Under the pieces are notes generated by a model. The model was not told the origin of the DNA. It saw only the letters and a program-made list of their open reading frames with translations, and did not search any database. Source: a virus (taxonomy: Duplodnaviria > Caudoviricetes). Taken from it: a DNA stretch of 64,000 bases. Positions 13,005 through 63,095 of this stretch are shown in pieces. The position numbers and the translations under genes are program-made. Position 1 is the first letter of the stretch; each line of letters begins with the position of its first letter. The stretch covers positions 1,451 through 65,450 of IMG/VR virus record IMGVR_UViG_3300011405_000002; one strand, 5' to 3'.

Positions 13005-13101
13005 TTGGAGCCTCCGCAGATAGAACGGAGTACGTGCGCAGTGAACGCAAGCCACATCGCTGTAGCCAGAAAATGCTGCAGGACTGGCCCGATTTCGATA
13101 G

Positions 13102-45531: not shown

Positions 45532-46461
45532 ATGAAAAAGAAACTTACACTTATTGCATTTGCAGCCGCGGTGATGGCGCTTTCGGCATTGCCGTTTTTC
45601 AGTCAGGCGAATCTGCGGCAGCCGACAGTCAGCACGACCGGGCTCCTGAACGTAACCTGGACGGCCGGCACATTGAACAACGGTGGGCATGCCGTTGCGA
45701 TCACTGCGGGTACGCTTAATGCGACGGCCAGTAAGACCGATTGCGCGGCGCCTACCTACACGTCGTGCGATTTCGTGTATGCGGATTCGTCTGGAACCGT
45801 TGCGCACTCCGCGACTCTTGCCACCGCCGCGGCCTCTGGCAACACGATCATGGCGATCATCGAGTCGAGCGGTACGGCGATCACGAAAATGTCGTTCCCG
45901 TTGCAGAACTCAGGCGTTGGACTTGCCGGACTTGGTGTTATCACTTCGCCGACTCTCGTCACGCCAAACATTGGCGCAGCGACCGGAACCTCCCTTGACT
46001 TAACTGGTTCAGTCGACGTCGGCGTTGCCGGAACCACAGTCGGTACCGTGGTGATGCACAATGCAACATCCGGCGCAATCACCCTAACTCCAACCACCGG
46101 GGCTCTTGGCACTGTATCGGCCACATTCCCGGCTGCGTCGATCACGGTTCCTGGAACCACGATGACCTCGTGTCTTACATCTGCTACCTGTGCAACACCT
46201 ACAGCGCAGAGTACAAACGGTAAGATAGCCTACGGTTCTGGGGCTTTGTCATCGGCTACTCCATCGGTGGCTACTATTTCGGGCATCTCCCCGGCTTTTA
46301 CAGCCACAACGTCAATGTTCTGTACTGCAAGTCCGCTTGGTACGACAGCGACAATTGCGGCATCTTCCATGGTAATCAACCTTGTTTCTACTTCATCCTT
46401 TACCGTAACCGGGCCAGACACTGTTACCACGGGATTTCACTGGATTTGCGTCGGCAATTAA
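45532..46461 (+). CDS. Signal-peptide-bearing fibre-like protein
   Basis: MKKKLTLIAFAAAVMALSALPFFSQA; TSPTLVTPNIGAATG fibre repeat; C-terminal WICVGN. Confidence 0.7.
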   Translation: MKKKLTLIAFAAAVMALSALPFFSQANLRQPTVSTTGLLNVTWTAGTLNNGGHAVAITAGTLNATASKTDCAAPTYTSCDFVYADSSGTVAHSATLATAAASGNTIMAIIESSGTAITKMSFPLQNSGVGLAGLGVITSPTLVTPNIGAATGTSLDLTGSVDVGVAGTTVGTVVMHNATSGAITLTPTTGALGTVSATFPAASITVPGTTMTSCLTSATCATPTAQSTNGKIAYGSGALSSATPSVATISGISPAFTATTSMFCTASPLGTTATIAASSMVINLVSTSSFTVTGPDTVTTGFHWICVGN

Positions 46462-46471
46462 GGAGTAATCA

Positions 46472-46810
46472 ATGGCAGCAACAGTAGCAACCGCGATTGT
46501 CCAGCAGAAGGTTGTAGCTCATGCCACTGCGATGAAGGGTGTGCCCGTGTATTACACGGGTCCCTCTTTGTACACGCAGTTGGCCGGTGGCGGCGACGTC
46601 CTGCAGGCGCAATCGATCATGTTGAAAAACATCTTCGCGGCTGGCGTCGTTGCAGATTCGACAGGCACCTATTGGATCATTCCGATCCTGACGTCAGGTC
46701 CAACGACTTCGATCAAGTTCATGTGGGTCACAATCGCGACTGGCGCGGAAGTGGCAGGTTCCACGGATCTTGACGGCTATCACGCGAATCTGATGGTCTG
46801 GGGTAACTAA
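46472..46810 (+). CDS. Small structural protein
   Basis: YT...GG..L......L..I, ...GAEVA...DL pattern. Confidence 0.6.
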   Translation: MAATVATAIVQQKVVAHATAMKGVPVYYTGPSLYTQLAGGGDVLQAQSIMLKNIFAAGVVADSTGTYWIIPILTSGPTTSIKFMWVTIATGAEVAGSTDLDGYHANLMVWGN

Positions 46811-46832
46811 TAGCAGGGGTCATGGGTAGCAA

Positions 46833-47834
46833 ATGGCAGATGTCGTCAGCTTGGCTTCAGAGTTGGTGGGTTGGGTGCCAAAGCTTCCTCCAGGCTTGGC
46901 TCGGATCCTTGTCAACAGGGCTTGGCGCGACATCTGCGATTCCCGTCTTTGGAGTTTTCTAGTCGAGGACGCGCAGATATACTCGCCGGCGCTCATCTCC
47001 GATGGCACGGCTTCCGTAACTCAATTCTCCGATCAGGTCACTCTTGACGCCACGGCTTCGGCTTTGGTGCTCGCCCAGGTTCTCAACACGGGTGCCCCGA
47101 TGAACACCAGGCAGTTCCGGGTTTCGACCACAGGGCCGATCTACAACATCACGGCGATCGATGTGACGAATCCTGCGGCCATTGTGCTGACGATTGCTCT
47201 GGGGACCAATGCGATAGGGTATTCGGGGGAGACAAACGCGGCGGCAAGTTATCAAATTTTCCGCTGCTATTACGACGCTCCGTCCAGAGACTTTAAGAAG
47301 TGGCTCTCTGTTTACGACCCGTCGTCAGGCTACTGGCTGAAGATCAACAAGCAGCAGGCTGATATTAATCGAATGGACCCCCAGCGCTCATCGCAAGGGC
47401 AGCCGTATATCGTGGCAAGCTTCAAGGCTGGATCAGCCGCAAATGGCCGCGCGCCAAAACAGGAGTGGTACCCAACGCCGACGTTCGAAAAAAGCTATTC
47501 AACCCTGTACATACGGCGAGGCGCTGAGCTTGTTGACGATGAAGATATCCCGGATACGATCCCGCCTGGCCTTGTTGTTTGGAAAGCTCTGTCGCATTCC
47601 GGAATGTGGGGGCTGGCTAATCAGGGAGCGATACCCGACCTGCGTGGCGTGGACTGGCGCTACTTCATCACTCACGGTCAGGAGAACTACGACAAGATGC
47701 TGCCGGGCGTGAAGAAGACAGACGACGAAGTTTATCTGATGAGTCTGGTTAAGCGAACGAACAATTCGCAGTGGCCTTTAGACTCGAAATGGCTCCAGAG
47801 TCATTGCCCATGGGGTGCCGGAGGTGGGTGGTGA
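46833..47834 (+). CDS. Head-tail adaptor-like protein
   Basis: LVNRAWRDIC....WSFL; W.P.P...Y...Y.R. Confidence 0.6.
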   Translation: MADVVSLASELVGWVPKLPPGLARILVNRAWRDICDSRLWSFLVEDAQIYSPALISDGTASVTQFSDQVTLDATASALVLAQVLNTGAPMNTRQFRVSTTGPIYNITAIDVTNPAAIVLTIALGTNAIGYSGETNAAASYQIFRCYYDAPSRDFKKWLSVYDPSSGYWLKINKQQADINRMDPQRSSQGQPYIVASFKAGSAANGRAPKQEWYPTPTFEKSYSTLYIRRGAELVDDEDIPDTIPPGLVVWKALSHSGMWGLANQGAIPDLRGVDWRYFITHGQENYDKMLPGVKKTDDEVYLMSLVKRTNNSQWPLDSKWLQSHCPWGAGGGW

Positions 47835-48373
47835 TTTCGCTTTTTAGAGTTTCGTCGTTGGCTGTGTGGAATTTGCGGTGTCGTCAGAGCGTCGTGAATG
47901 CTCCATCCAGAACGGATGCGATTGCGCAATCGCTCTACAGGAAGTTTGTAAGTCTCAGCCCACGCGAACAGATGCTTTGTCTCTCCTTTGTAGGTATAGA
48001 GTCGATTGTTGCGCTTATTCATGTGCTGTTGGCTTCGAGTGGCCCAACGCACATTACCGGGTTCGTAGTTGCCGTTATTGTTGGGATAGCGGTCCAAGGA
48101 ATGATTCGAACTTGGCCGCTGTCCGACATCTCTCAGAAATGTCGCGAAATCACGAAACCACTCTTCGCAAACTACGATACCTCTGCCTCCATAGTGTTCG
48201 AAATGAACGTATCCAGGATTTGTGCATCGCTGCTTCATATTGACCCACGCCTCATACTCAGGAGTTTTGTGGCTTCCGTGAGTGACGCAGGCGGCTTGAG
48301 CTTTGAGAATATTCTTCTTGGATGCCGCGAGATGCTTCGCGCTTTCCACAAATGGTACTATTCGTTTAGCCAT
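47801..48373 (-). CDS. HNH homing endonuclease, antisense insertion in the structural cluster
   Basis: W.NMKQRC.NP...YGGRGI.VC.EW, HSLDR..NNNGNYEPGNVRWAT. Confidence 0.9.
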   Translation of the reverse strand: MAKRIVPFVESAKHLAASKKNILKAQAACVTHGSHKTPEYEAWVNMKQRCTNPGYVHFEHYGGRGIVVCEEWFRDFATFLRDVGQRPSSNHSLDRYPNNNGNYEPGNVRWATRSQQHMNKRNNRLYTYKGETKHLFAWAETYKLPVERLRNRIRSGWSIHDALTTPQIPHSQRRNSKKRNHHPPPAPHGQ

Positions 48374-48483
48374 TGCGTGATACGTCCTTTCCGTATTGCG
48401 ATTGGTGAGGCCTCGAAGAGAGCGTCAACTTTCATCGGGGCCGTTTCTATGTTAGCAAACGTTCCAGTTTAAGGAGAACAAAA

Positions 48484-48720
48484 ATGGGCGACCTTCACTC
48501 CACGTTTACCGACGCGATTCCGGCTCCGTCAATTGATCCTAAAGTGCCAATCAGTCAGCCGGGAGGTGAGTCGATGAATTCCCCGTTTAAGGACGGGAAC
48601 ATGGGTACCGGATCGATGCAGAGTCCGGCTATTCCATCTGGTCTTGCTATCGGAAATCTCACGCAAGGACCACTTGCTACGCCATTTCGCGACGGCCCCA
48701 TGAAAGGCAAGAACTCGTAG
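48484..48720 (+). CDS. Small Pro/Gly-rich protein
   Basis: AAGGAG RBS; internal PF.DG repeat. Confidence 0.55.
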   Translation: MGDLHSTFTDAIPAPSIDPKVPISQPGGESMNSPFKDGNMGTGSMQSPAIPSGLAIGNLTQGPLATPFRDGPMKGKNS

Positions 48721-48728
48721 GAGGACCC

Positions 48729-50729
48729 GTGCGTCGACTTCTTATTCTGATCGGATTGCTGCTCTGCGCCCAGACTGCGTTTGGATTCGAGAAGTATCAG
48801 AACTGGGTGCAGCAGGGAGGGCAGACGATAACGACTGCTGGCATCGCGAGCACGTCCTTTGCTCAAAGATCATTTCTGACTGGGGCGTGCTCCGGGAAGC
48901 CGTGTATCACTGTCTACGATCCTCCCGGTCAAACGTCGACTCTAGCGACTATTTATTCCGATAATGGCGTGACGCCACTCGCAAACCCATTCGCCATTCA
49001 GGGTGCGACAACAGGCCAGTTCTTCTTCTACGCAGCAGCCGGGCATTACGATGTCCGGGTCACTGCAACCGGCATGACCACCTACACGCTGGGCGATGTT
49101 GTTATCGGCACCCCCGGGCTGAACGATTGCACGAACTTCCCCGGGGCTAACGCTGGCGCTCAGATCGCGGCATGCGTGGCAGCGCTGCCGTCGACGGGCG
49201 GAACTGCTGACGCGAGAGGCTTCAAGGGCGCTCAAACATGGTCGGCTCCCGTGGCGATCTCCCGGAACACGAATCTTCTGCTCGGAGCCGCAACCTATAC
49301 CGTCACAGGAAATGCTTTCTCCTATTCCTCTGGCGTGCTCTACGTTCGCGGGTTGGACATGGGGCAGACCACGATTGCCTTGTCTGGTACGTCCGCGTGG
49401 AACTTTAATCCAGCCTACGTAACCAGCGGTATGGGTTTTTCGAACCTAAGTGTTACTTCAACCTCGACATCATCTGACGCTGTTCCGATTGGTAACGCCT
49501 CATTCATCCCAGGCTACGTCGATATCCACGACGTCAAGATTACGGGCCCGGGTGGAACGACGGGAAGTGCTGACGGGTTTGCCATTGCAGGCATACAAGT
49601 CTCGCAGCTTCAAAACATCTGGATCTTCAAGTATCCCGGCGATTGCCTGCATATCGATGCGGAAGGTAGCGGAGAAACGCACTTCATTAACGTGAATCCT
49701 GATTCTTGTGGCGACTGGGGAATCCATATCCTGAGCACGACTGTCAATCAGTCGGGCGGATATACGTTCACTGATTCGATTATTTCTAACCGCGATTTGA
49801 TAAGTGGCTCTGGAGGCGTCGCTGTCCAGAAGGCATCTGGGGCGCAGGCACAACTAAACTTCACATTCATTGGCGGGGGATCAGACAACATCAAGGGCGG
49901 TCCTGCGATGTTGTTCAAGAACACCTCAAATATCAAGGTCATCGGCGCTCAGGTGTTTCAGGCGGATTCTGCTGGAACAAACTGCAATCTGAACGCTGGC
50001 ACGAATTGTTATGCCGGGATTCATGTTTTCAACGTCAATAATGCAATCATCGCCGGAAATACTATCGCCAGTAATTCTCGGACTGTTGCGTTCGAGGATG
50101 TGGTCAATGCTGTCGTGGTTTCTGGAAATGTACTTCTCGGTGACGGCACGAACACGGTCGGCTATTTCATTGAAACCGGAACCATCACCAAAGGGTACAT
50201 CGACACGACGAACACGACGACGATTGGCGGTATCTACGATCTCGGGATGATGACCAACAGTCCTGCCGATATGCTTGCTGCGCGCAGCACGTTCCTGAAC
50301 GGCTACCCCGACTCCTACGGCAACTACATTCAAGGCACCTCGCGCCTTTGCGCTTTAACGGGCGCTACGCCGTGCAAGAACTGGAAGGTCGAGTCTGGCG
50401 TCCTGCGGCTTTTTGCTAACGACAACTCCACGCGAATTCTGCAAGTCGGTGACGACGGCACGCTGGAGGTTCAGACAAAACTGATACAGCCTTCAGCCGA
50501 TACCTGGGCTGGAACTGCGACAATCACGAACGGTCAAGTAAATGCGACAGTCACGTTCCCAGTAGCCTACGGCAGCGTGCCTTCCTGCACAATGTCGCCG
50601 CGAGCCGATCCTGGCGTGGGCGTTCGTTGGTATAAGAACGCGAATACGGCACAGTTGGTTGTTACGATGACCTCCGCATCGGTAGGTAGTACGGTGTTTG
50701 ATTACATCTGCGTTGGAAACCCGAACTGA
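48729..50729 (+). CDS. Signal-peptide-bearing tailspike-like beta-helix protein
   Basis: MRRLLILIGLLLCAQTAFG; TIYSDNG.TPLANPF head domain; I..N repeats; C-terminal FP.AY...P.C...YICVGN. Confidence 0.7.
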   Translation: MRRLLILIGLLLCAQTAFGFEKYQNWVQQGGQTITTAGIASTSFAQRSFLTGACSGKPCITVYDPPGQTSTLATIYSDNGVTPLANPFAIQGATTGQFFFYAAAGHYDVRVTATGMTTYTLGDVVIGTPGLNDCTNFPGANAGAQIAACVAALPSTGGTADARGFKGAQTWSAPVAISRNTNLLLGAATYTVTGNAFSYSSGVLYVRGLDMGQTTIALSGTSAWNFNPAYVTSGMGFSNLSVTSTSTSSDAVPIGNASFIPGYVDIHDVKITGPGGTTGSADGFAIAGIQVSQLQNIWIFKYPGDCLHIDAEGSGETHFINVNPDSCGDWGIHILSTTVNQSGGYTFTDSIISNRDLISGSGGVAVQKASGAQAQLNFTFIGGGSDNIKGGPAMLFKNTSNIKVIGAQVFQADSAGTNCNLNAGTNCYAGIHVFNVNNAIIAGNTIASNSRTVAFEDVVNAVVVSGNVLLGDGTNTVGYFIETGTITKGYIDTTNTTTIGGIYDLGMMTNSPADMLAARSTFLNGYPDSYGNYIQGTSRLCALTGATPCKNWKVESGVLRLFANDNSTRILQVGDDGTLEVQTKLIQPSADTWAGTATITNGQVNATVTFPVAYGSVPSCTMSPRADPGVGVRWYKNANTAQLVVTMTSASVGSTVFDYICVGNPN

Positions 50730-50735
50730 GGATGG

Positions 50736-52103
50736 ATGCCTTACTCCTTCATCACATGGTCCCAACTGAAGCAGCAACTGGCAGGCCGACTGTCGATCAC
50801 TCTCACTGCGACTTCCTACTGGGCTGACACTGAACTCGGGCTGATTCTCGCGGAAGCCCTTCGCACGTACGGTAGCATCACGCAGTTTTGGAAAGAGCGC
50901 GGTGTTTTCAATACGGTCTCCGGGACGGCATTTTACGATCTGACCGTTCAACTTCCTTCGCTTCTCGGGATGACGATCACCGACCGCGACATGATCCTGC
51001 AGTTGCAGTATGCGCTGATGGAGAATCAGGCTATCAGTTCGCAATCCTCATGGCTCGGCACGGAGCAATTCACCCTCGACGATCTTACCCAGGCGCTGCA
51101 GCGGCGAAGAAATCAACTTCTTGTTGAAACCGGGATCATGCTGACCAACTCGCAGCCGGCCGTTCCGCCTTCGCCGATTGGCAGGGTGCCGCTTTCCGAG
51201 AACGTCATTGATGTCCGGTGGGCATCATGGGTGGGCCTCAGTGACGCGGGCGCGGCGGTTTATCGGCAACTTCAACGGTCGGATGAATTCGGACTGAATG
51301 CCTTTTCGCGGGGCTGGGCGCTGAACGCCGGAAGACCGACGCAGTACAGCGTTGCGATTACGCCTCCGGTATCACTCCAGTTGGCCCCTCCTCCGAACGA
51401 CGTTGGGTCTCTGGACATGCTTTCGGTGAATGCCGGGGCAAACTTCAATCCCTCAGTGTCGGCCACGCTATTGGGCATCCCTGACGATTTGTCGTGGGTT
51501 CTGAAGTGGGGAGCGCTGGCTGACTTGTTTGGGCGCGCCGGCATGTCTCAGGATCTGCTGAGAGCTCAATACTGCGAGATGCGGTGGCGCCAGGGCGTTG
51601 AGATTGCGCGGATGCAGTCGCCTCTGATGAACGCTCAGATTCAGGGCGTGGACGTGCAGATTTCTTCTCTCGAAGACTTTGAGCGGTTCGATCAGACCTA
51701 CTGGAGAAACACTTCAGATCAGCCGACAAAGGTCGGAGTGTGTGGCTACAACATGATCGCGCTATCGAAGGTGCCGAACGGAATCTATTCAGTTACTGGA
51801 GATATCGCCAGGAAGGCGCCTATCCCGGTAGTTGATGGCCCGGTACAAATGAGCCAAGAAGAACTCGACGTGATCCTGGATTACGCCGAACACGTCGCAG
51901 TATCCAAGCAGGGCGGGTCGACGCTGACAGACTCGATGCCTTTGATGAACAACTTCTATCGGATGGCTTCGATCAGGAACCAGAGGATGCGGGCGAATGC
52001 GGCATTCTTCGAAGCATTGGGCGATAGGGCGATCAGGCCGAAAGAGCAGCATCCGCGAAGGTCGCCCAGAGAGACTCAGGACGTGCAGGAGGTTTCGAAG
52101 TAA
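50736..52103 (+). CDS. Second adaptor / tail tubular A-like protein
   Basis: W...EL...L.EALR; P..Y......L.P.P motifs repeated. Confidence 0.6.
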   Translation: MPYSFITWSQLKQQLAGRLSITLTATSYWADTELGLILAEALRTYGSITQFWKERGVFNTVSGTAFYDLTVQLPSLLGMTITDRDMILQLQYALMENQAISSQSSWLGTEQFTLDDLTQALQRRRNQLLVETGIMLTNSQPAVPPSPIGRVPLSENVIDVRWASWVGLSDAGAAVYRQLQRSDEFGLNAFSRGWALNAGRPTQYSVAITPPVSLQLAPPPNDVGSLDMLSVNAGANFNPSVSATLLGIPDDLSWVLKWGALADLFGRAGMSQDLLRAQYCEMRWRQGVEIARMQSPLMNAQIQGVDVQISSLEDFERFDQTYWRNTSDQPTKVGVCGYNMIALSKVPNGIYSVTGDIARKAPIPVVDGPVQMSQEELDVILDYAEHVAVSKQGGSTLTDSMPLMNNFYRMASIRNQRMRANAAFFEALGDRAIRPKEQHPRRSPRETQDVQEVSK

Positions 52104-52387
52104 TGGACGAACTATTTGCTCACCCGAAGGTAATTCTCGAAGTGCTCATTGCCTATTGGCTTTTCAGCGCGTTCGTCACCAGCATGCCGCCACCGGAAGT
52201 CGGATCATTTTGGTATAAATGGATCTACGATCTGCTTCATCTTTTCGCTGGTTCAGTCAAGAAATTCGCTGACAGCAAAATACAGTCCTTGGAGTCTAGC
52301 GTGAGCCGAAAGACTCCAGACGGAGGAGAGGTTGTCGAGAAAACGACCATCAAGGAAACAGGGCCAGCGCCAGACGGGAAATCGTGA
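52103..52387 (+). CDS. Holin-like membrane protein
   Basis: Hydrophobic segment, MP.P....WY.W.Y..LH, charged tail. Confidence 0.5.
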   Translation: MDELFAHPKVILEVLIAYWLFSAFVTSMPPPEVGSFWYKWIYDLLHLFAGSVKKFADSKIQSLESSVSRKTPDGGEVVEKTTIKETGPAPDGKS

Positions 52388-52602
52388 AAGCGCCGACTGT
52401 CTCATTTGATTTGCTCTGGAAAGTCGCCGGTCTGGTTTTTGTAGCTGGAATGCTGTACTCGAATACGAAGGCTTCAGGAGAACAGACTCGGCGCGATCTG
52501 GAGACTCACGCCACGTCAGAAGAAAAGCGGATTGATCGTGAGGAAAAGCGGATTGATCGTATCGAGGAATACCTTGCTGCATTGCGGAGGAATGGGCTGT
52601 AG
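52384..52602 (+). CDS. Small single-TM coiled-coil protein
   Basis: TM followed by EEKRIDR twice. Confidence 0.55.
   Translation: MKAPTVSFDLLWKVAGLVFVAGMLYSNTKASGEQTRRDLETHATSEEKRIDREEKRIDRIEEYLAALRRNGL
52519..52560 (+). repeat. 21-bp tandem duplication
   Basis: GAAGAAAAGCGGATTGATCGT / GAGGAAAAGCGGATTGATCGT. Confidence 0.8.
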
Positions 52603-55600
52603 ATGGCGGACTACACTCGTCTGAAACGGAAGATGGCCTGTACGGGGCTGCAGCTTGCGCCTCCGGATATCCTCGCTCCAGGAAAATTCTCTCGTTTGAA
52701 AAATGCGCGTTCGTACGAACCAGGCACCATCGAATCACGCGCTGGCTTCGCTCGGATCAACTCGACCGCTCTTGCCGATGCGATCCATTCCGTTCGCCGG
52801 ATGAACGATCAGTTGCCAGGTGCGGCGAATCCTTTCATCAGGGTGTCGGCTGCAGGAACAAAACTCTACACGGGAACCTCTGGCAATCTGACCGAAGTAG
52901 ACACCGGATATTCAGGGAACCCGGTCGCGCTCGTGCCGTTCCGTCCTGACGGTTCACCTCAGTCGTGGATGTACGTTGCCGACACCGCGAAGATGCGCAA
53001 GGTGAGCATGGACGCGGCAACGGATTACGGTCTTGGGATCGCCGCGCCGAACTCGCCGCCGACTGCAGCCTTGGCCATCCCGAACAACGCATACCTTGAA
53101 GACTTCTCTTACGCGAGCGACGTTGCGCTGCAGGCGGTCTGGATTGAAGGAGGAACTGCCGGAAACCCCACACGCGAGCAGTGGCGCGTCAATACGACCA
53201 TCTCGCAGATTCTGTTCGATACGGGCACGACCGGATGGGCATGCGTCAATCCGGCAGTGGCAGCGGGAATATTGGCTGGATCTCGACTGCTGATTAACAC
53301 GGGAGGCGGAACCGTAGAAACCGTCCTCGTCCACGATGTATTCCCCGCAACGTCAGGGACCATCACGATCGGATCGATTATCTACGATGCCGGAACTTCA
53401 GGGGCCTGCTCGATCGTGTTGAGCATTCCTGTCCGCGAGATCCAGGTGGATTCGATGATCCGGATTGCAGCGGCAGAAAACTGCCGGGTGCTCTCGGTGA
53501 CTCCGGGACCGAACGGGCTGACTTGTATCAGAACCAGTACGGCGTCTACGCGGGCCGCTGGCGATGCTCTGGCCGGACTGGCATCCTTCCGTGCGTATTT
53601 CGTGAGCACGCACGCTGCAGCCGAAACTGTGACTCAGGATGCCATGGTGAGTGCGATCACTACTGGCACGGGCTATCTGACGTCGACGGCGCTTGCGGCA
53701 AACCTTTCGCTTGTCGGTGGACGTCCAATCCAGTCGACCGACTACCTGCAGGTGGGCTTTCTCCTGACCGATCCTTCGAAACTGACGTCGGGAAAGATCA
53801 TGTTCGATATCGACGTGGCCGGATCCGGGGCCGGGACGATCTTTCAGAGAAACTTCTACTACTTCGAGTTTCGAGCGTCTGACTTTGTGCCGGCTGCCCA
53901 GGGAACCTTGTCGCTGCTCACCACCCAGCAGCGCGCGATTCAAAGACAGATCATCGACGAGGCCGCGGTCATTGCTCAGTTTGGCTACTATCCGGAGTTC
54001 TTGCCGCCCCCTGGAACTGACGTGTCAGGAATCGATCCGAATCAGTACCAGTATCCCTATTATGGTTCCATTCCCACCATGACCGTTTATGAGGAAGACA
54101 CTGGCTCTCCGGTTCAATCCTCCACCAGCGCGCAAAGCGATGCAGGAAAGGCTCAATGGACGCAGTTCAAGATTCCTTTGAGCGTTCTCGAGGCGAACCG
54201 TGTTGGGTCCGACCTGACGCGGACCTGGAAGGACATGAACTCGTGCCGGGTGCAGTTTGTGGTTACTGGGGCGGTCGACGTGTATGTGTCGGCGATCCTT
54301 GTCGGCGGTACCTACGGTCCTGACACTGGAGACCTCGGGACGCAATTCCTTTATCGCTATCGGGCAGAGTCGGCGATCGGCGCAATGTCGAATCCGTCTC
54401 CTCCGATGCGTGGAGGCCCCTCTCCTCGAAGCGAGCGGGTGATCCTGACTCTTTCCACCGTGTCTGACGCACAGGCCACGCAACTGAGAATTGAACGGTA
54501 TGGCGGCAACCTTCAGGGATGGCATCGGATCGGAAGTGTTCCGAACACGGGGACTCCGACTTTCAACGATGATCAATCGGAAACGGCTCTGGCCAACGCG
54601 CCACCTCTGGAACTCGACAATCATCAGCCGTTCCCAACGATAGACACTCCAAAGAGTGGAACCTGCAACGTCGCAGGGACATCTGTTGTGCGAGTCTCTG
54701 GAGACACTTTCAATACCTCGTGGGGCCGCGGCACGATCATCAACATCGCGGGCGTCGACTACACGTTTTACAATCAGCCGACCAGCACGACCTTCGTTCA
54801 GATAAACGAGAATGCGGGAACTGGATCCGCGGTCGCCTGGTACATCAAAGAGCCGATTCTCCTTGCGCAGCCGCTGCCTTCTTTGTGGGGACCGCATCCT
54901 CTGATCGACGTTCTGTTCGCGTGCGGGAGCGTCTATCAGCCGGGCAGCCTGTTCTGGACGAAGCCCGGGAACGCCGATTCCGCACCGATCCGATTCACGC
55001 AGGAAGTGACGGCGCCGACTGAGCCTCTCGTTAATGGCGTGATGCTCCCTGACGGTCGGTCAATCGTCTATTCCTCGCAGCGAAGTTTTGCGATCTATCC
55101 GGCGCTGAACGATGTTTCTGTCATGACGATCCTCGAGGCCGGGAAGCGCGGACTGTTCGCGCGCCGCTGTCTGTGCTCCGGGGAAGGAAAGATTTGGTTT
55201 CGCGCTGTCGATGGGATTTACGAGAGTGGCGGTGGAGCGGTCTCTGAATCAATCACAGGCGATCTCTACGTGCTATTCCCACATGGCGATACCGCTGGCC
55301 AGACATTCGGCGACTACATTCCACCGGACGACACGCTGCCCTATTCTCAGCAGCTCTCGTACGCGCGCGGTTGGGTCTATTACGACTACGTGGGCACGGA
55401 CGCGAATCGGCATCGGCTGTCTTACGACGTGGCAGCAAAAGCCTGGTGGCCAGACGAGCCTGCTGTTGAACTCCTGATGGCCTATCAGGAGGAAGGTCAG
55501 AGCGTGCAGTCGGTGATCTACGGTGGCGCCGATGGGCGACTACATACCGCTGGCGGCACAACAGACGACGGCACCGCTATCCCAGGGCAATTCCGAACCG

Positions 55601-56229
55601 GCTGCGAGGATGCGGACGATTCGCGCTCCGAGAAGCAGTTCGGCGATGCGATGCTCGACTTCGTGAGCCCCTCAGTTGCGATCTCTGTCATTGCCGGATT
55701 TGACAATTACACGGTCTTGAAGGCTGCACAGGCGTTCACGAATGCAGATCGGGAAGATCAGAAGAACCTGATAGTGAATTCTGGAGACGGGCAGGACGCG
55801 CGCAACATGGCGATCGATGTCCAGTGGGCAGCATCGGGCCCCAAGTTTTACGAGTGGCAGCCGTCTTTCAAGCAGAAGCCCGGAGACATGGTGCGCAACA
55901 CCTGGCAGACGCAGGAGATGACTTTCGGGTATCCGCACTACTTCCATCACGACCATGAAAGCCTGTGGGCGGTGATCTCTACCGAAGATACCGTGCTCAC
56001 AATTACTATCGACGGGACGGATTTCACGTATACCATTCCATCGACAGGCGGCGTTTATGCAAAGCAGATGGTGGAACTGAAGATCATGAAAGGGAAGTCC
56101 GTCAAGTATACGATTGTCGGAACTGAGGGGTGTCGGTTGTTCCCGGAGGATTGCACGATAAATTTGCGCGGTTGGGGGGATTCTGGCCCATACCGTCCAG
56201 TGAGACCATTTGGCGGCGGGGCCGCGTAG
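52603..56229 (+). CDS. Tail nozzle / tubular protein B-like (1208 aa, with a large insertion)
   Basis: N-terminal L.NAR......ESR.GF; beta-propeller-like middle; C-terminal K.F....LD... sandwich. Confidence 0.7.
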   Translation: MADYTRLKRKMACTGLQLAPPDILAPGKFSRLKNARSYEPGTIESRAGFARINSTALADAIHSVRRMNDQLPGAANPFIRVSAAGTKLYTGTSGNLTEVDTGYSGNPVALVPFRPDGSPQSWMYVADTAKMRKVSMDAATDYGLGIAAPNSPPTAALAIPNNAYLEDFSYASDVALQAVWIEGGTAGNPTREQWRVNTTISQILFDTGTTGWACVNPAVAAGILAGSRLLINTGGGTVETVLVHDVFPATSGTITIGSIIYDAGTSGACSIVLSIPVREIQVDSMIRIAAAENCRVLSVTPGPNGLTCIRTSTASTRAAGDALAGLASFRAYFVSTHAAAETVTQDAMVSAITTGTGYLTSTALAANLSLVGGRPIQSTDYLQVGFLLTDPSKLTSGKIMFDIDVAGSGAGTIFQRNFYYFEFRASDFVPAAQGTLSLLTTQQRAIQRQIIDEAAVIAQFGYYPEFLPPPGTDVSGIDPNQYQYPYYGSIPTMTVYEEDTGSPVQSSTSAQSDAGKAQWTQFKIPLSVLEANRVGSDLTRTWKDMNSCRVQFVVTGAVDVYVSAILVGGTYGPDTGDLGTQFLYRYRAESAIGAMSNPSPPMRGGPSPRSERVILTLSTVSDAQATQLRIERYGGNLQGWHRIGSVPNTGTPTFNDDQSETALANAPPLELDNHQPFPTIDTPKSGTCNVAGTSVVRVSGDTFNTSWGRGTIINIAGVDYTFYNQPTSTTFVQINENAGTGSAVAWYIKEPILLAQPLPSLWGPHPLIDVLFACGSVYQPGSLFWTKPGNADSAPIRFTQEVTAPTEPLVNGVMLPDGRSIVYSSQRSFAIYPALNDVSVMTILEAGKRGLFARRCLCSGEGKIWFRAVDGIYESGGGAVSESITGDLYVLFPHGDTAGQTFGDYIPPDDTLPYSQQLSYARGWVYYDYVGTDANRHRLSYDVAAKAWWPDEPAVELLMAYQEEGQSVQSVIYGGADGRLHTAGGTTDDGTAIPGQFRTGCEDADDSRSEKQFGDAMLDFVSPSVAISVIAGFDNYTVLKAAQAFTNADREDQKNLIVNSGDGQDARNMAIDVQWAASGPKFYEWQPSFKQKPGDMVRNTWQTQEMTFGYPHYFHHDHESLWAVISTEDTVLTITIDGTDFTYTIPSTGGVYAKQMVELKIMKGKSVKYTIVGTEGCRLFPEDCTINLRGWGDSGPYRPVRPFGGGAA

Positions 56230-56240
56230 GGAGGATTTGA

Positions 56241-56552
56241 ATGATCCGTTCAATCATTGTTACGTCTACAGGCGCCGGCTCAAAAGTGCGAGCGACTTCG
56301 GCCAACACTCCGCAGGAAAAGTGCCAGTGGATTTCGGTTGCAGCGGATCCAGACAACACGGGTTTTCTTGCCCATGGAGACGCGACAATTACCGCTGAGA
56401 TTGGCCAGCAGATCGCTCCAGGTGGAGGCAGTGGCATCATTCAATACCCGCCGTGCAGTGGGTTGATGTCTTACGGCTACATGCTCAGTGAACTCTATAT
56501 CTATTTCGAGGCGGCCGACGATAAGGCGCAAATCAATTTCATGACCCGATAG
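56241..56552 (+). CDS. Small beta-sandwich structural protein
   Basis: GGAGG RBS; I.A...NTG....G pattern. Confidence 0.6.
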   Translation: MIRSIIVTSTGAGSKVRATSANTPQEKCQWISVAADPDNTGFLAHGDATITAEIGQQIAPGGGSGIIQYPPCSGLMSYGYMLSELYIYFEAADDKAQINFMTR

Positions 56553-56566
56553 AAGGAGAGAATGTC

Positions 56567-57124
56567 ATGCGTAAGTTTCTAAGAATCGCCCGTCTCGCAA
56601 TCTGTTTCACCCTGGCTGGAGGAGTCCTGCTTGCCCAGCAGGGAACCACGATCCTCCGGGACTACAACTCGAACACTCAAGCGAATGTCGCTTCGAATCA
56701 CGCGCTCGACGTGAATATGTTCAGTTCGACAGGTACTGCAATAGCTCCGGTAACTGACCCCTGCGATGGAGTGGCTAAGAGCAAGTACGTTATCAATACG
56801 ACGTCTGCTGCCACCTTCGAGATCGACAATGCGTCAGGTTCCGACAAGTGGTACATCTGCTCTGTCAACATCATCGTCCAAGGCGCTCAGAAAGTAGCTA
56901 TAGCGGCCGATAACACGGATGGCTGTGGCTCGATTACTGAGGGCTTAAATGGTGGAACAACCGCGGCTACAGGCTGGAGTTTTGCGGCAGACGGTTCCGG
57001 CATTGCCCTCGGAGCGAGTAAGGGAACAGTCCTCGGGCCATCCACCGGTGGCTACTATCTCTGCATGCTCACATCGACAACGGCGCAGACGTCCGGATCG
57101 ATTCAGTACGTTCACGCGCCGTAG
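56567..57124 (+). CDS. Signal-peptide-bearing jelly-roll-like protein
   Basis: MRKFLRIARLAICFTLAGGVLLA-QQ; 4 mature Cys. Confidence 0.7.
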   Translation: MRKFLRIARLAICFTLAGGVLLAQQGTTILRDYNSNTQANVASNHALDVNMFSSTGTAIAPVTDPCDGVAKSKYVINTTSAATFEIDNASGSDKWYICSVNIIVQGAQKVAIAADNTDGCGSITEGLNGGTTAATGWSFAADGSGIALGASKGTVLGPSTGGYYLCMLTSTTAQTSGSIQYVHAP

Positions 57125-57131
57125 GAGCCTT

Positions 57132-58298
57132 ATGCGAAAACTTCTCCTCATCCTCCTGCTGCTCGTCGCGGCTCCCGCGTGGGCGCAGACGGCGACATGG
57201 ATTGACTCTGGTGGCGATGCGACGACAGACACGTCGATGGCGAGTACGACCTCTGGGACTGTAACCGTCGATGCGGTAACTTTCCATACAGGGCCAAATT
57301 CTTACAAGATCGGCACAGGCGCAGCGACGGGCCAATTTAACCGGACAAATGTGCTCGCTGACGCTGGACGACGGTGCAGCATCTGGTACAACTTTCCTGA
57401 CGCTACTCCTGCGACGAATACCTTTATCACGCTGTTTGAGGATTCGGCTGGAGCGACAAATGTAATCCGCATGCGCCTGAACACGACCGGCAAGTTGGAG
57501 ATGCTCAGCACGGCGTCTCTCGGATCAGAGGGCGCGACGGTATTATCAGATAACACATGGACGCGGATCGGTGTCTCTTACACGATCTCGGGCACAACCG
57601 CAAACATTACAGTTCGGATCAATGGCAACACTGAACTCACGCTAACTGGCGTGACGCTTGCGAACGCTTCAACGAATCGCCTGTCAATCCGAACTAACGT
57701 ATCGACAACGACGTTCTTTACAGACGACATCTGGTGCGACGACGGCACCGACCTTGGCGATCCCGGCGACATTCGCGTCACGGCGAAGCGACCGATTTCG
57801 AACGGCACAACTAATGAGTTCACGACTGAAGTCGGTGCTGGCCCTGCACCAAACGGAATCGGCACTGGTCATGCGCCCAACGTCAGTGAGCGTCCTCTTT
57901 CTACAACCTATGGATGGGCTCTGAACAAGAGCGATATAAAGACCGAGGAGTACAACATCCAGACAATCTCGGCTGGAGACGTAGATATAACCGGGTTGAC
58001 TATTAAGGGAGTTCTTGGTTGGGTACGCGCTGATGCCAACCCAACGCCAGAAAATGGCTCCATCATGCTGCAAGGCAGTTCTTCCGGAACCATTGCGCTG
58101 ACTTCAACGGCAGCTACATTCTTCAAGATCGGAAGCGCAACTTATCCCGCTGGCACAGGGACGGACATCGGCCTTGTGACCGACACTACGGCAAATATCG
58201 ACTCGCTCTACGAAGCGGGAATCGTTATCGGCTATCTCAATGGCGCAGCAGCCGCATGTGTGCAGAGTCTAATGCTATTGGGGGCTGGAGGATGTTAA
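57132..58298 (+). CDS. Signal-peptide-bearing ConA/LamG-like protein
   Basis: MRKLLLILLLLVAAPAWA-QT; W..IG.......RING...L lectin-like strands; AGGAG RBS. Confidence 0.75.
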   Translation: MRKLLLILLLLVAAPAWAQTATWIDSGGDATTDTSMASTTSGTVTVDAVTFHTGPNSYKIGTGAATGQFNRTNVLADAGRRCSIWYNFPDATPATNTFITLFEDSAGATNVIRMRLNTTGKLEMLSTASLGSEGATVLSDNTWTRIGVSYTISGTTANITVRINGNTELTLTGVTLANASTNRLSIRTNVSTTTFFTDDIWCDDGTDLGDPGDIRVTAKRPISNGTTNEFTTEVGAGPAPNGIGTGHAPNVSERPLSTTYGWALNKSDIKTEEYNIQTISAGDVDITGLTIKGVLGWVRADANPTPENGSIMLQGSSSGTIALTSTAATFFKIGSATYPAGTGTDIGLVTDTTANIDSLYEAGIVIGYLNGAAAACVQSLMLLGAGGC

Positions 58299-61200
58299 TG
58301 CCCACAGCGATGACACCGGCTGGTTGTTTTAGAGACGCCGCAGCGTCCGCAAGTCGTTACGGGCGTCAGACCAAAGAAGCGCTTAAAAAGTTGTTTTATC
58401 ATTCGGTAATTCTATTGACGCTTGCGCTTCTGTCAAGAACTACCGTACTCACGCAGGCCGCCTGCACGACAACGATTAATGGAGATCAGCCTACGGTTCA
58501 GACTGCGGTGAATGCGGCATCCGATGGCGATGTGATTTGCCTTAACGCAGGGAGTTGGATCTATACCACGCACGTTGAAATCACAGACAGCGGGACGGTG
58601 GGCGTTGAAATTCGCGGTGCTGGCAGTTTTCAATCGCCTTGGGGTGCGGACCCATCGACACAGACGATAATCACCAATCACTCGACAGGCAACGGCGTGT
58701 TCTTTGGCTACGAGCCTAACGGGACGCACAATCCAACGATTTCGAATATTACGTTCCTGATCGACTCCAGCACTCAGGCCGGACAGTACGTGTTTGGCAC
58801 GTCGATGGCAGCGGGCCAGCACAAAGAATGGATTGTCCACCACAACACGTTCACATTTAACACGACGCCGGGGTGTAACGCGAAAGCCGGGTTTATCGGC
58901 ACCGGCCATGCTGTCATCTACCGGAACATTTTTACGACCACGTTTTGCACTGGTGGATTCACGAATGTCAATGTGCTGGATGTGGCGTTTGGCGGCAACG
59001 CCACCACCTCGTGGGAGTCCGCATCGACATTTGGATCTGCCGACAGCGGCGGTACGGGCAATGTTTATCTCGAAACCAATTACATCGAAGGGTTCCTAAT
59101 CACCGACATCTCGACGTCAGCGAGATTCGTCGGGCGATTCAACGAGATCCATCTTGGAACTTTCGGCGGTCACGGATACGACTCGAATGTGACGGGTATT
59201 CGCGGTGCTGAGTACTACTACAATACGTTTTCGTGTAACGACATCTACTCCGGCTCAAGAGTGCCCCTGACAAACTGGATCTCTCAGCGCGGGGGCACTG
59301 GCTTCGTACACAACAACACGTTTCCTGCTCCTGCTTCGCCGTGCAACATTACAACGGCCCAGCCAGCGGCATACCACTCCGCGTCTTTCAAAACGCTCCA
59401 GTGTATCGGTATCCCTGGTTGGCCGGGTTCGTATCCTGACACCTATCCTGTGTCGCATCAGCCAGGATGGGGATGGATTAGCGGTTCAAACCAGAACGTA
59501 GGGACAACAGCGAAACAGAACTGGCCAGGCGGTGCTTCTGGATTCGCACAAGCCTTAGAGCCGATCTATCTGGCCAACAACACGAACAACACGGGAGTAA
59601 ACCCCGTGACCGTGCAAGGCAACGGCGGCGAGTGCAGGGCCATGGCGTATTCGAATAAATCGAAGGCGAGTGGTACGACCTTGGTTATTCCTGCCGCGAC
59701 AACTGCCAGCACGTCGATCCCCTACGCCAATGTCGGGCAGGAGTTGGTTGCAGTGCTTGGCGATCTAGTCGGCGGCACGACGCCGACGATTGCGTCAAGC
59801 CCTACATGTACGTGGAACCCTTTAACCGCGGGTACTAACGGCTCCATGAGGCTGTCTGCATGGAATTGTACGGTCGTCACTGGCGGCGCTGTCACAGTCA
59901 CGTTTACGCACGACTCCTCAGCAGCAGCGCGATCTGGGACCGTTGCTGTTCTGCGAGGAATGACGGCGAGCCCTCTGGACGCAAACCCAGCGGTCGTAAC
60001 AGACAACACCAGTCCCTACGATGCGCCTTTGAGCGGCACGCTGTCTCAGGCCGTCGAGATCGTACTCGGATACTTTGCTCTGAATGGGCCGACCGTCAAC
60101 GCTTCGAATGGTGGGGCGGTTCTCTTAACGACTGACACTATAGCGGCGGGGGCGTCCGACACAATCTCCGTTTCGAACGGCTCTACCGGCGGAGCAGTCG
60201 GCGTTGGCTTCAACGCGACCACTGGTGGTGCTGCTACAGACAACGTAACGGCTGGCATCACCTACCGTGTTGTCAATGCGACAACTTCAATCGCTCCGAG
60301 AATCACAAACACAACCGCAAACCGAGACGGTTTGGCCGGAACTGTGTCTTTTAAAGTGACAGGCACCGCCAGCAGCTTAGACCTGCTCGACGCTGACGTC
60401 ATCGCGTTCAACCGAGAAATCTATAACGATATTCCTGCGAGCGGCGCTTCATTTGATGGCACGGTTGGTACGGGTTCTGGTGCTCGCGCATCCCGCCCTG
60501 CAACCTGCACGACTGGCGTGGCCTACTGGTCCACCGATCAAGGTTCCTGGAACACGAGTGGTAGCGGCGGGAATGGTGTGCTGGACAAGTGCACAGGGAC
60601 AAATACGTGGACGAACGCCTGGTATGTTCCCTACGACTATCCACATCCATTGGCGACGGTTAATGGTGCATCCCCTCCGACTCCTGGAAACTCGGGAATC
60701 CTCACGACTTCTGCCGTCACATCGACCACACTGACAGTAAGCTGGACAGCGGCATCAGCAGCGACCGGCACTCCGCTGTACTACCTGTGCCGCTCTGCGT
60801 CTCCGATCACTACCGTTGCCGAATGCCTCGCAGCGACTCAACTTCAGGACTACACGGCGGCCTTCACGACCTACAATGACACGGGGCGCACTCCGCTCAC
60901 GACGTATTACTACAACTACGTCCTGACGGACGACACGGGATTGACAGTGCTCGGCAACGATGTTTCTCAGTTGATGCCGTGCGGGGCGACGAAGGTTGTC
61001 TTTACGGCGCAGCCAAGTAGCGCAGTTATTGGTGCAACGCTCGGGACCGTTACGGCTGTTATTCAGAACGCATCGAGTACGACCTGTACTGATTCCTCGG
61101 CCTCAATTGTGTTGTCGACGAATGCCAGTACGACATGGGGTGTACTTACGAGTTCAACCGGAATCCCAGGACTGACAAAAGCTGCGACCGCTGGCGTGGC

Positions 61201-61366
61201 AACATGGACAGACCTTTTTGCGAGTTCAACGATCGGCACTGGCCCAATCGACGCGAATTCTACTGGGCTGACAAAGGCGACAAGCGACTCCATTGCGATT
61301 ACTGACGCTCCTATTCCTCCTGCCGGGGGCGGTGCTGGAGTGAGACTTAGAGTGCGAACTCGCTGA
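58298..61366 (+). CDS. Large adhesin/fibre protein (beta-helix plus FN3/Ig-like domains), probable extended signal peptide
   Basis: ATG overlaps the upstream TAA; Q.AVNAASDGD.I.L..G start, WYVPYDYPHPL end of beta-helix, LTVSWTAA...YY.Y FN3. Confidence 0.7.
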   Translation: MPTAMTPAGCFRDAAASASRYGRQTKEALKKLFYHSVILLTLALLSRTTVLTQAACTTTINGDQPTVQTAVNAASDGDVICLNAGSWIYTTHVEITDSGTVGVEIRGAGSFQSPWGADPSTQTIITNHSTGNGVFFGYEPNGTHNPTISNITFLIDSSTQAGQYVFGTSMAAGQHKEWIVHHNTFTFNTTPGCNAKAGFIGTGHAVIYRNIFTTTFCTGGFTNVNVLDVAFGGNATTSWESASTFGSADSGGTGNVYLETNYIEGFLITDISTSARFVGRFNEIHLGTFGGHGYDSNVTGIRGAEYYYNTFSCNDIYSGSRVPLTNWISQRGGTGFVHNNTFPAPASPCNITTAQPAAYHSASFKTLQCIGIPGWPGSYPDTYPVSHQPGWGWISGSNQNVGTTAKQNWPGGASGFAQALEPIYLANNTNNTGVNPVTVQGNGGECRAMAYSNKSKASGTTLVIPAATTASTSIPYANVGQELVAVLGDLVGGTTPTIASSPTCTWNPLTAGTNGSMRLSAWNCTVVTGGAVTVTFTHDSSAAARSGTVAVLRGMTASPLDANPAVVTDNTSPYDAPLSGTLSQAVEIVLGYFALNGPTVNASNGGAVLLTTDTIAAGASDTISVSNGSTGGAVGVGFNATTGGAATDNVTAGITYRVVNATTSIAPRITNTTANRDGLAGTVSFKVTGTASSLDLLDADVIAFNREIYNDIPASGASFDGTVGTGSGARASRPATCTTGVAYWSTDQGSWNTSGSGGNGVLDKCTGTNTWTNAWYVPYDYPHPLATVNGASPPTPGNSGILTTSAVTSTTLTVSWTAASAATGTPLYYLCRSASPITTVAECLAATQLQDYTAAFTTYNDTGRTPLTTYYYNYVLTDDTGLTVLGNDVSQLMPCGATKVVFTAQPSSAVIGATLGTVTAVIQNASSTTCTDSSASIVLSTNASTTWGVLTSSTGIPGLTKAATAGVATWTDLFASSTIGTGPIDANSTGLTKATSDSIAITDAPIPPAGGGAGVRLRVRTR

Positions 61367-62421
61367 TGCCGCGTGACTACTCTATTCTTCACAGTTTACA
61401 AGGAACAATTTCTCCTGCGGCGATATCAACGTTTCAATTGATCCTGACGCATCTCTACGATCTCAACGATGAGGTCCAGAAGATTCCCAAGACTCCGCAG
61501 AAAATCTCGATATCCGATATCGAACAGCAGATCCAGGCGCGCAAGCGGATAAACCTCAGTCAGTTTCTCGGGATCCTTGCGCAACCTCAGAACGCAGCAA
61601 TCCCGGAAGTTGAAGCGCTTCCCAGTGTGAACGATCCTTTGTCGCAGGATGGTGGCGCGGTTCGCATGGATGGCGTGCTCTACGTCTTCGATGGTGATCC
61701 GGAGCCGGGATCTTGGGTGCCAATCATTTCGGCCGGCACGATTCAGGACACGCGGGCAAATCGGACGAACTATCCTCCTGCTAACTACGACAACTTCCTG
61801 TACCGAGAGACGGACGCTGGGTCGAGTCTTTGGTACATCAGCGATGGAGTGGCGTGGACGTACGCATTCGGTCGTTACAAAAGAACTCAGGCGCAGATCG
61901 CTGCATTCACCGCGGGGCTCGGAGTCAACGACACAGGTCTGCTTCTTGAGATCACAAACTACGATCACGTTCTCGAATGGGGAGGCGCTGCGCTTTCGTG
62001 GGGGTACGGGAACCCGGCGCCGTCTGGCATGTATTGCCTGTTCGAGACTGCGCCAACAACTCAAGGCTGGCAGATTTGCGATGGATCGACAGTCGATCGC
62101 CTGAATGCGGATGGAACGGTTACGAGCGTCACAGTTCCCGATCTTTCGACTCCTGCATACCTGAAGGGTGGAACGGCCGCCGCGGCGGTTGCAGCGGCAT
62201 CTGGCACGGCCGCCAACACGACAGCAACGAACCAGGCAACAGTGGTGGCGCCGCATACAGTAGTTGAGCGGCTGGACGATGCAGGCGCTGGAGTCTGGGT
62301 ATTCGACAATCAGGCAGACGCGGACCATGCCTCCCACAATCACACGCAGGACGCGCACAATCACGCACCGGGAACTTTAGAACTTCTGAATAAGCAAGCG
62401 ATACTTTACTATAGGCGGTAA
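61366..62421 (+). CDS. Tail protein with collar-like domain
   Basis: GWQICDG...VPDL...YLKG. Confidence 0.6.
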   Translation: MPRDYSILHSLQGTISPAAISTFQLILTHLYDLNDEVQKIPKTPQKISISDIEQQIQARKRINLSQFLGILAQPQNAAIPEVEALPSVNDPLSQDGGAVRMDGVLYVFDGDPEPGSWVPIISAGTIQDTRANRTNYPPANYDNFLYRETDAGSSLWYISDGVAWTYAFGRYKRTQAQIAAFTAGLGVNDTGLLLEITNYDHVLEWGGAALSWGYGNPAPSGMYCLFETAPTTQGWQICDGSTVDRLNADGTVTSVTVPDLSTPAYLKGGTAAAAVAAASGTAANTTATNQATVVAPHTVVERLDDAGAGVWVFDNQADADHASHNHTQDAHNHAPGTLELLNKQAILYYRR

Positions 62422-62423
62422 TT

Positions 62424-63095
62424 ATGGCAAGCCTTTGGAAGATTCTCGGAGGAGTGGCAGGCATCGCAGGCCAGGTGTTCGGACTTCCAACTGGCGCTGC
62501 TGGTGTCGGGCTTCTTACGAGCGGTCTGACGAGTGGCGGGAAAAAGAAAACGACGACTGGCGATGGCGAAGAGGCCTCTGATCTCGATTCCCTGGTAGGC
62601 AAGCAGTCTTCGCTCTCTTCAAAGTTTCTTGGCGAAGGTTCAAATCTTGCCGGCCGCGGCGAAGAGTCGATCGACAAATCGCTGCGTTACCTGATGCCTT
62701 TGCTTGGCGGCGACAAGACCGCCGTGACGTCGACGCTGGCACCTGAGTACGACACGATCCTTCAGCAGTACGATACAGCGCGTAAGACGGCTTCTGAGAC
62801 TGGGCCTCGCGGGGGCGCAAAGGGTGAGGCGATTGCGGAATCCACGTTCAAGCAGGCTGATGCTCTGTCTCGATTACTTCAGGTTGTTCGCAGGGAAGCG
62901 GCGAGCGAAGTTACCCGGATTGGTGAGTCTCGTGCGAACCGTGGTGTTGCAAAGGAAGGTCTCGGGATCCAGAGTCTCGACAACGTGATCGCGTCCCTGA
63001 CGGCGAAACGCGGGCAGAATCTCCAGACGTATGGTGATATTGGGCAGGGGATCGGTTCGGTGGTCGCCTCGCTGCTCCTCAAGGGGAACAACTGA
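62424..63095 (+). CDS. DNA-ejection / pilot-type protein
   Basis: Gly/Ala-rich amphipathic termini; RGG-containing helical core. Confidence 0.6.
   Translation: MASLWKILGGVAGIAGQVFGLPTGAAGVGLLTSGLTSGGKKKTTTGDGEEASDLDSLVGKQSSLSSKFLGEGSNLAGRGEESIDKSLRYLMPLLGGDKTAVTSTLAPEYDTILQQYDTARKTASETGPRGGAKGEAIAESTFKQADALSRLLQVVRREAASEVTRIGESRANRGVAKEGLGIQSLDNVIASLTAKRGQNLQTYGDIGQGIGSVVASLLLKGNN

Follow-up and report, generated by a model that had tools for sequence, protein, structure and literature searches.

Predicted export signals and paired cysteines on spike-, fibre- and lectin-like late proteins of a tailed soil phage

Five late proteins with Sec-type leaders

We analysed a 64,000-nucleotide stretch of viral DNA (the window), corresponding to bases 1451-65450 of the 65,450-bp IMG/VR record IMGVR_UViG_3300011405_000002, which has direct terminal repeats and is rated complete. 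Judged by its homologies, the window is nearly the entire genome of a podovirus-type soil phage, a distant relative of the Tunturiibacter (Acidobacteriota) phages Tunturi 1 and Tunturi 2. Five plus-strand late genes, designated A, C, E, F and G, encode proteins that begin with the n-, h- and c-regions of a Sec-type leader peptide, and these proteins are the subject of this report. Leaders were called with a heuristic of our own for the three regions, together with homologues; in all five proteins the n-region is positively charged, the h-region is unbroken over 7-15 residues and the residues at -3 and -1 are small.

Protein A (309 amino acids (aa), 45532-46461) has its leader at residues 1-26 (MKKKLTLIAFAAAVMALSALPFFSQA↓N, site SQA↓N, where the arrow marks predicted cleavage), protein C (666 aa, 48729-50729, GTG start) at residues 1-19 (MRRLLILIGLLLCAQTAFG↓F, site AFG↓F), protein E (185 aa, 56567-57124) at residues 1-23 (MRKFLRIARLAICFTLAGGVLLA↓QQ, site LLA↓QQ) and protein F (388 aa, 57132-58298) at residues 1-18 (MRKLLLILLLLVAAPAWA↓Q, site AWA↓Q). 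Protein G (1022 aa, 58298-61366) has a 35-aa n-region, an h-region at residues 36-46 and a predicted site before Ala-Cys (SVILLTLALLS..TQA↓AC). Shine-Dalgarno (SD) sequences lie upstream of all five starts (AGGAG, AGGAGG, AGGAG, AGGAG and GGAGG for A, C, E, F and G, respectively), and the start of G overlaps the stop codon of F (TAATG). The original prediction, made from the sequence of the window without database searches, had placed signal peptides on the genes starting at 45532, 48729, 56567 and 57132, and their coordinates and leader residues were all confirmed. It had called the leader of the gene at 58298 extended yet plausible, which was borne out by close relatives of G, in 17 of 18 of which a canonical leader precedes a conserved (A/P/S)CT. 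Portal, capsid, adaptor-like and nozzle-like proteins and the terminase have no leader, in agreement with the earlier statement that core capsid, portal, adaptor and nozzle lack one.

Comparison with homologues strongly supports the leaders as real and functional. In two families, those of C and F, leaderless relatives begin at the predicted cleavage site. Leaderless isoforms made by internal initiation were considered and rejected, as no in-frame start with an SD sequence lies near any predicted cleavage site. No lipobox ([LVI][ASTVI][GAS]C) was present at the end of the h-region in any of the five proteins, and Cys56 of G was rejected as a lipoprotein Cys, since in relatives of G the Cys is at +2 or +3 after AQA. 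No muralytic domain was found among the five.

The mature parts of A, C, E, F and G contain 6, 12, 4, 4 and 16 Cys, mostly as consecutive close pairs, and the even counts given earlier proved exact on recount. Pairing was clearest in C, where the 12 Cys form six consecutive pairs (54/59, 134/149, 306/327, 419/427, 541/549 and 620/661) with gaps of 5-41 residues within pairs and 71-157 between them (permutation p = 0.0016). The close pairing that had been noted for many of the Cys also held for G, with its 16 mature Cys in consecutive pairs (p = 0.027), and for A (pairs 71/79, 214/220 and 264/306; p = 0.044), but not significantly for E and F, which have four Cys each (82/202 and 376/388 in F). 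In the leaderless core, Cys counts are mostly odd (portal 5, capsid 3, nozzle-like protein 13, terminase 7 and adaptor-like protein 2).

Leaders and cysteines in homologous families and related phages

AlphaFold2 (AF2) modelled protein C as a right-handed beta-helix (predicted local distance difference test (pLDDT) 84.6, 49 relatives in the alignment), with the leader as a separate, lower-confidence N-terminal helix at residues 2-13. Behind the leader come a small N-terminal beta module (about residues 20-130), the beta-helix and a C-terminal beta domain. Foldseek matched the model to Det7 gp208, Sf6, P22 and the alginate epimerase AlgE4 (E 1e-6 to 1e-3), to the phi297, LKA1 and HK620 tailspikes and Klebsiella depolymerases and, in BFVD, to phage 'pectate lyase superfamily' proteins (E 7e-13), while C itself had no Pfam match. 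By its modelled fold, C is a phage beta-helix tailspike.

An exhaustive phmmer search returned 1270 matches to C, which share the N-terminal ~200 residues and have variable C-termini. Leaders are present in at least 108 of the best 154 family members, and all leaderless members start six residues ahead of a conserved aromatic residue, Trp (MQKIQGW..), the point at which cleavage is predicted in the query. A Cys pair (..GWC[EQ]QGG..(about 25 residues)..SCT[VI]TVY) occurs in 84 of 99 leader-bearing but 0 of 10 leaderless members, which instead read W[VST]E...[SA]AT (Fisher 7.7e-8, with family members being non-independent samples in this and the other family comparisons). The C of the window lacks the first of these family Cys and has a local CSGKPC pair instead, so that its count stays even; mature counts are even in 77 of 98 leader-bearing C relatives. 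Homologues had been proposed as a check on the conservation of leaders and Cys pairs: the leaders are kept, and in the C family one Cys pair tracks the leader. In one family member (P0133) the leader ends ..SAFG↓MEKYQDWC, retaining a Met exactly where leaderless relatives start (MEKIYGW..), and this leader looks as if it arose by 5' extension of the open reading frame (ORF).

Protein F was modelled as two beta-sandwiches (pLDDT 91.5, 60 relatives), the first a ConA/LamG-like jelly roll, with the leader as a detached helix of lower confidence. The model matched CBM22, a PL20 lyase, the lectin-like subdomain of the clostridial neurotoxin binding domain and the TM4 gp23 receptor-binding domain at template modelling scores of 0.3-0.6, which indicate generic fold likeness only. 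F itself has no Pfam match at E<0.01, and several of its relatives carry PF13385. Where spike-, fibre- or lectin-like domains had been suggested, the models thus give a beta-helix tailspike for C and a lectin-like double sandwich for F.

The F family comprised 149 matches, 120 of which were examined. Most (103 of 120) are leaderless and start MATTFLEPG(T/G)DA.., and in the other 17 a classic leader is fused directly before the same conserved start (..PAWA↓QTATWIDSGGDA in the query and ..PSWA↓AVKFIESGSDA in P0003). On a tree of the mature parts, at least 10-11 gains or losses of the leader are required. The query belongs to a well-supported clade of five leader-bearing, Cys-richer members, and the family as a whole, with the same N-terminus, is found in unrelated phage types of 38-62% GC. 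Mature Cys counts are even in 14 of 17 relatives with a leader versus 43 of 103 without. At the C-terminus (window 58250-58298) the family has a conserved L-x-L-L-G-(V/A)-G, which in the leader-bearing clade (P0002-P0005 and P0021) is flanked by two Cys (C..LMLLGAGGC); leaderless members have none there.

In the G family, even mature Cys counts were found in 16 of 17 relatives (counts 12-22), and some G relatives carry Ig-like or LamG domains. Protein A is Thr/Ala/Gly-rich and fibre-like, and for both A and E the ESM Atlas gave only viral hypothetical clusters. Descent of A and C as paralogues was rejected, as they have only a short C-terminal motif in common: A ends FHWICVGN (46440-46461) and C ends FDYICVGNPN (50700-50729), next to LMVWGN in the leaderless protein B (46790-46810) and YACHGNPN in the C relative P0122. 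A and C also both have a stretch T-F-P-x-A-x-x-(S/T)-V-P about 60-110 residues before the end, pointing to a small C-terminal domain present in both.

The same kind of leader recurs in Tunturi 1, which together with Tunturi 2 (PP887698 and PP885685) is a cultured 63-kb podovirus of Acidobacteriota (PMC11924767). In Tunturi_1 we identified leaders, such as MKKFIQLALLFILPAAASA↓Q, on gp12 (1190 aa, 20 mature Cys), gp13 (675 aa, 10), gp14, annotated as tail spike (919 aa, 20), gp16 (149 aa) and gp17, annotated as virion structural protein (1184 aa, 32), and found none on the portal, major capsid protein (MCP), gp11, gp30 and gp31. The Cys of gp12, gp13, gp14 and gp17 form consecutive pairs (permutation p 1e-4 to 4e-3), and gp12 has the N-terminal module of C, matching its profile from residue 1 with the leader included (E 3e-32). 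Unlike the window, where the leader-bearing genes are interleaved with other structural genes, Tunturi 1 has its spike genes in one block between gp11 and the lysis genes, and the C-terminal parts of its spikes are unrelated to those of the window.

Other loci, some of them in unrelated phages, provided further arrangements. A close relative (L011) encodes homologues of A (978-1382) and C, both with leaders. Several leader-bearing ORFs lie in the structural modules of L005 (42% GC) and of L003, which has a P22-type portal and a copy of the beta-helix of C at 53% identity, and in L012 (38% GC) two leader-bearing genes immediately precede genes for a holin-like and a PG_binding endolysin-like protein. 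Leaderless versions of the N-terminal module of C occur at the same place in L002 and L014. In the 67-kb contig L010, which belongs to the same lineage, two adjacent genes for leaderless fibres are alike in the first 45 residues of the module and lie just upstream of adaptor-like and nozzle-like genes, the gene order seen for C; no protein encoded in that block of genes has a leader.

Locus L014 also encodes a homologue of G (10001-13051) that is 65% identical to window 58298-61366, although identity to the window is no more than about 29-31% for its capsid, adaptor-like and nozzle-like proteins. This points to recent exchange of the G spike gene between divergent phages, which probably have the same host. 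The homologue keeps its leader and shares its place beside an SLT-type lysis gene with two further ORFs that have leaders, of which one belongs to the XepA family. The XepA protein (PF27453; 394 aa, L014 8056-9240) follows the SLT gene and two membrane ORFs, an exported late protein within a lysis cassette.

Probable export, proposed late docking and the alternatives

The five late proteins are very probably exported and folded oxidatively outside the cytoplasm, because their leaders are conserved, leaderless relatives start at the predicted cleavage site, relatives with a leader mostly have even numbers of Cys and the presence of one Cys pair follows that of the leader. To this extent the comparison with relatives upheld the earlier inference, which went on to propose docking onto particles at or after lysis. 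Docking at lysis is plausible for the tailspike C, since immediately behind the predicted cleavage site C has the module with which leaderless fibres of sister phages begin at the corresponding gene position.

The prevailing view is that assembly of tailed-phage virions takes place entirely in the reducing cytoplasm. In the route that we propose, the five proteins would be exported through SecYEG and cleaved by signal peptidase I, which would leave Gln as the new N-terminus in two of them (E and F). Oxidation during translocation into the periplasm would favour consecutive Cys pairs and give chains of consecutive disulfides, and the proteins would fold there, C presumably as a trimer. Particles with capsid, portal, adaptor and nozzle would be assembled in the cytoplasm and, upon breach of the inner membrane by the holin or upon lysis, C would dock by its N-terminal module as the final assembly step. 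E, F and G would be further late-docking appendages, or free exported helpers that bind or cut sugars. We estimate a probability of about 0.5 for this reading as a whole, that is, Sec export, cleavage and periplasmic disulfides combined with a cytoplasmic core and a tailspike C that docks last.

Late docking is conceivable because tailspikes of the P22 type add last, the P22 tailspike being one that can be added to heads in vitro. A conserved N-terminus specific to the tail type, followed by a variable, host-specific C-terminus, is moreover the usual build of receptor-binding proteins attached to virions. In P0122 the beta-helix of C is kept at 53% identity and the N-terminus differs, and its phage has a P22-type portal. 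The window yielded no candidate for a leaderless spike or fibre.

Several observations weigh against this proposal. L014 combines a leaderless C-type fibre, encoded between adaptor-like and nozzle-like genes, with a leader-bearing G homologue beside lysis genes, so that leader-bearing proteins need not be the receptor-binding proteins of the virion, and E, F and G may be exported accessories. The link between leader and Cys pair in the C module rests on one leader/leaderless contrast on supported branches, and in the F family ten independent contrasts went the expected way by about 5.6 to 0.9, which was not significant in a sign test (median p = 0.125). Cys are altogether absent from several F relatives with a leader, and a leader is therefore not always accompanied by disulfides. 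The adaptor and nozzle roles of the proteins encoded at 46833, 50736 and 52603 derive from weak matches and from the annotation of another record, and neither family searches nor tblastn with Tunturi_1 recognised an endolysin, holin or spanin family in the window. Finally, the paper describing Tunturi 1 and 2 reports no virion proteomics, and the terms 'signal peptide' and 'mass spectrometry' are absent from its text (PMC11924767).

A second reading, possible though at clearly less than even odds, is that the proteins are exported and oxidised but act as free late accessory lectins or depolymerases rather than as virion parts. Working from the periplasm, or once released, they would remove or cover the slime, capsule or receptor of the infected cell, thereby freeing progeny or blocking superinfection, and virion receptor binding would fall to the nozzle-like protein or to something we did not recognise. 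The L014 arrangement speaks for this, as its leader-bearing G homologue and two leader-bearing ORFs (one of them XepA-like) adjoin the SLT gene and its fibre is separate and leaderless. So do the lysis-like genes adjoining leader-bearing genes in L012 and L005, the spread of the F family over unrelated phage types (38-62% GC) with at least 10 switches of leader state, and the physical separation of a periplasmic protein from cytoplasmic assembly. It fits less well with C and Tunturi_1 gp12, whose N-terminal module is that of leaderless fibres encoded at the corresponding gene position, a module that is swapped with the tail type, nor is the build of C, a conserved N-terminus and a variable C-terminus, what would be expected of a protein apart from the virion. 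It would also leave the window without a recognisable spike or fibre.

It is improbable that the leaders are uncleaved signal anchors that tether the proteins to the periplasmic side of the inner membrane, for phage exclusion or staging. Long, very hydrophobic h-regions and the unusually long n-region of G would suit such anchors, and signal-arrest-release (SAR) endolysins and the debate over T4 RI show that cleaved and anchored signals are hard to distinguish. However, all five proteins have small -3 and -1 residues after a short h-region, the leader helices in the AF2 models are short (11-12 residues), and the leaderless relatives of C and F begin where cleavage is predicted. That the leaders are annotation or chance artefacts on cytoplasmic proteins assembled in the ordinary way is hardly credible, given the strong SD sites, the lack of alternative starts, the retention of leaders across hundreds of relatives and in a cultured phage, and Cys parity and pairing that track the leader.

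Compared with known systems, C resembles the beta-helix tailspikes (Det7 gp208, Sf6, P22 gp9, HK620, phi297, LKA1 and the Klebsiella depolymerases) in its fold, N-terminal module and variable receptor-binding part but differs in having a predicted cleavable leader and six likely disulfides; to our knowledge, those tailspikes and depolymerases lack signal peptides and are folded in the cytoplasm. Phages do export proteins, including secreted and SAR endolysins (for example, fOg44 Lys44), the T4 antiholin RI, spanins, Cor, Llp, Lom and Bor, and XepA of PBSX, a leader-bearing relative of which neighbours the L014 G homologue. Like those of the window, these are phage products that depend on the host Sec system, and their genes often adjoin tail or lysis genes, but the proteins are small lysis or exclusion factors rather than spike-, fibre- or lectin-like proteins of 300-1000 aa, and we know of no large spike- or fibre-like tailed-phage protein among them. 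Coat proteins of Inoviridae are likewise virion proteins exported, via Sec/YidC, before assembly, but inovirus virions assemble at the membrane and extrude, whereas the phage of the window is tailed, packaged through portal and terminase, and has a leaderless core.

In a full-text literature search we found no paper describing Sec leaders on tailed-phage spikes. The proposed export step for tailspikes or fibres is a route that we found described for no tailed phage. For the broader proposal, that in a tailed-phage lineage to which cultured Acidobacteria phages belong the receptor-binding spikes mature in the periplasm and are attached only after holin opening, in a two-compartment assembly, we would put the odds just short of even. 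If spikes are indeed exported, oxidised and added at lysis, then assembly spans two compartments, infectivity depends on the host Sec and Dsb systems, such spikes or depolymerases misfold when expressed in the cytoplasm, and annotation pipelines that count signal peptides against a structural role mislabel receptor-binding proteins. If the proteins are free helpers instead, they make up a large and so far overlooked group of accessory proteins, produced late by phages and directed at the envelope of slime-rich soil bacteria. As Tunturi 1, Tunturi 2 and their host are in culture, the question is directly testable.

Genome organization and neighbouring genes

Pfam and PHROGs recognised few genes in the window, namely the portal (39431-41509) and the major capsid protein (43646-44776), and were almost blank for the five leader-bearing proteins and neighbouring genes. 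Among 50,697 GenBank phage records, Tunturi 1 and 2 were the sole relatives of the capsid protein (28.7% identity over the full length, E 1e-42). By tblastn, Tunturi_1 has orthologues in the window at 25-38% identity (E 1e-34 to 5e-89), including those of TerL (at 36007), the portal (39431-41509, plus strand, leaderless), gp7 (at 42655) and MCP (43646-44776, plus strand, leaderless).

Further plus-strand genes of the late region also have Tunturi_1 homologues. Protein B (112 aa, 46472-46810), homologous to gp10, has neither a leader nor any Cys, and the next gene encodes a leaderless 333-aa tail protein (46833-47834) with 39% identity to gp11, annotated as 'tail protein'. The leaderless 455-aa adaptor-like protein (50736-52103) is a homologue of gp30, and its counterpart in L010 has a weak SU10_adaptor match; the leaderless 1208-aa nozzle-like protein (52603-56229, 13 Cys) is a homologue of gp31, annotated as 'virion structural protein'.

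Broader searches added little. Sequence searches of the PDB gave no match for F, G and the proteins at 50736 and 52603, and chance-level matches only for C and the protein at 46833. No match was found by tblastn in GenBank phages with F or with the C-type N-terminal module, and scans of IMG/VR returned no locus for the nozzle-like protein and one for the capsid protein. A GTDB scan with the F family returned three loci in metagenome-assembled genomes (Paceibacterota and Gammaproteobacteria), which are uninformative on the host of this phage. For the host, Acidobacteriota would be a fair guess and no more than that.

Outside the late region, a 196-aa plus-strand ORF (29480-30070) begins MKRRGFLSCLPFLAPAVVAAVP, a Tat-like (twin-arginine translocation) rather than a Sec signal, and has no Pfam or PHROG match. 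Small ORFs at 4754-5122 (plus strand), 15327-15614 (minus strand) and 12705-13004 (minus strand) have leader- or anchor-like N-terminal segments and lie outside the late spike genes. An ORF of >1329 aa at 1-4746 (plus strand), open at the 5' end of the window, has no Cys and no family match; its location behind 61366-63898, across the terminal repeat, makes an internal or ejection protein the probable product.

Between the adaptor-like and nozzle-like genes lie two small overlapping plus-strand ORFs for membrane proteins of 94 and 72 aa (52103-52387 and 52384-52602), the second with a coiled-coil tail. The same place is empty in Tunturi_1 and L010 and is occupied in L014 by a 51-aa ORF and the C-type fibre gene. 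The 94- and 72-aa membrane proteins (52103-52602) may be holin/antiholin-like.

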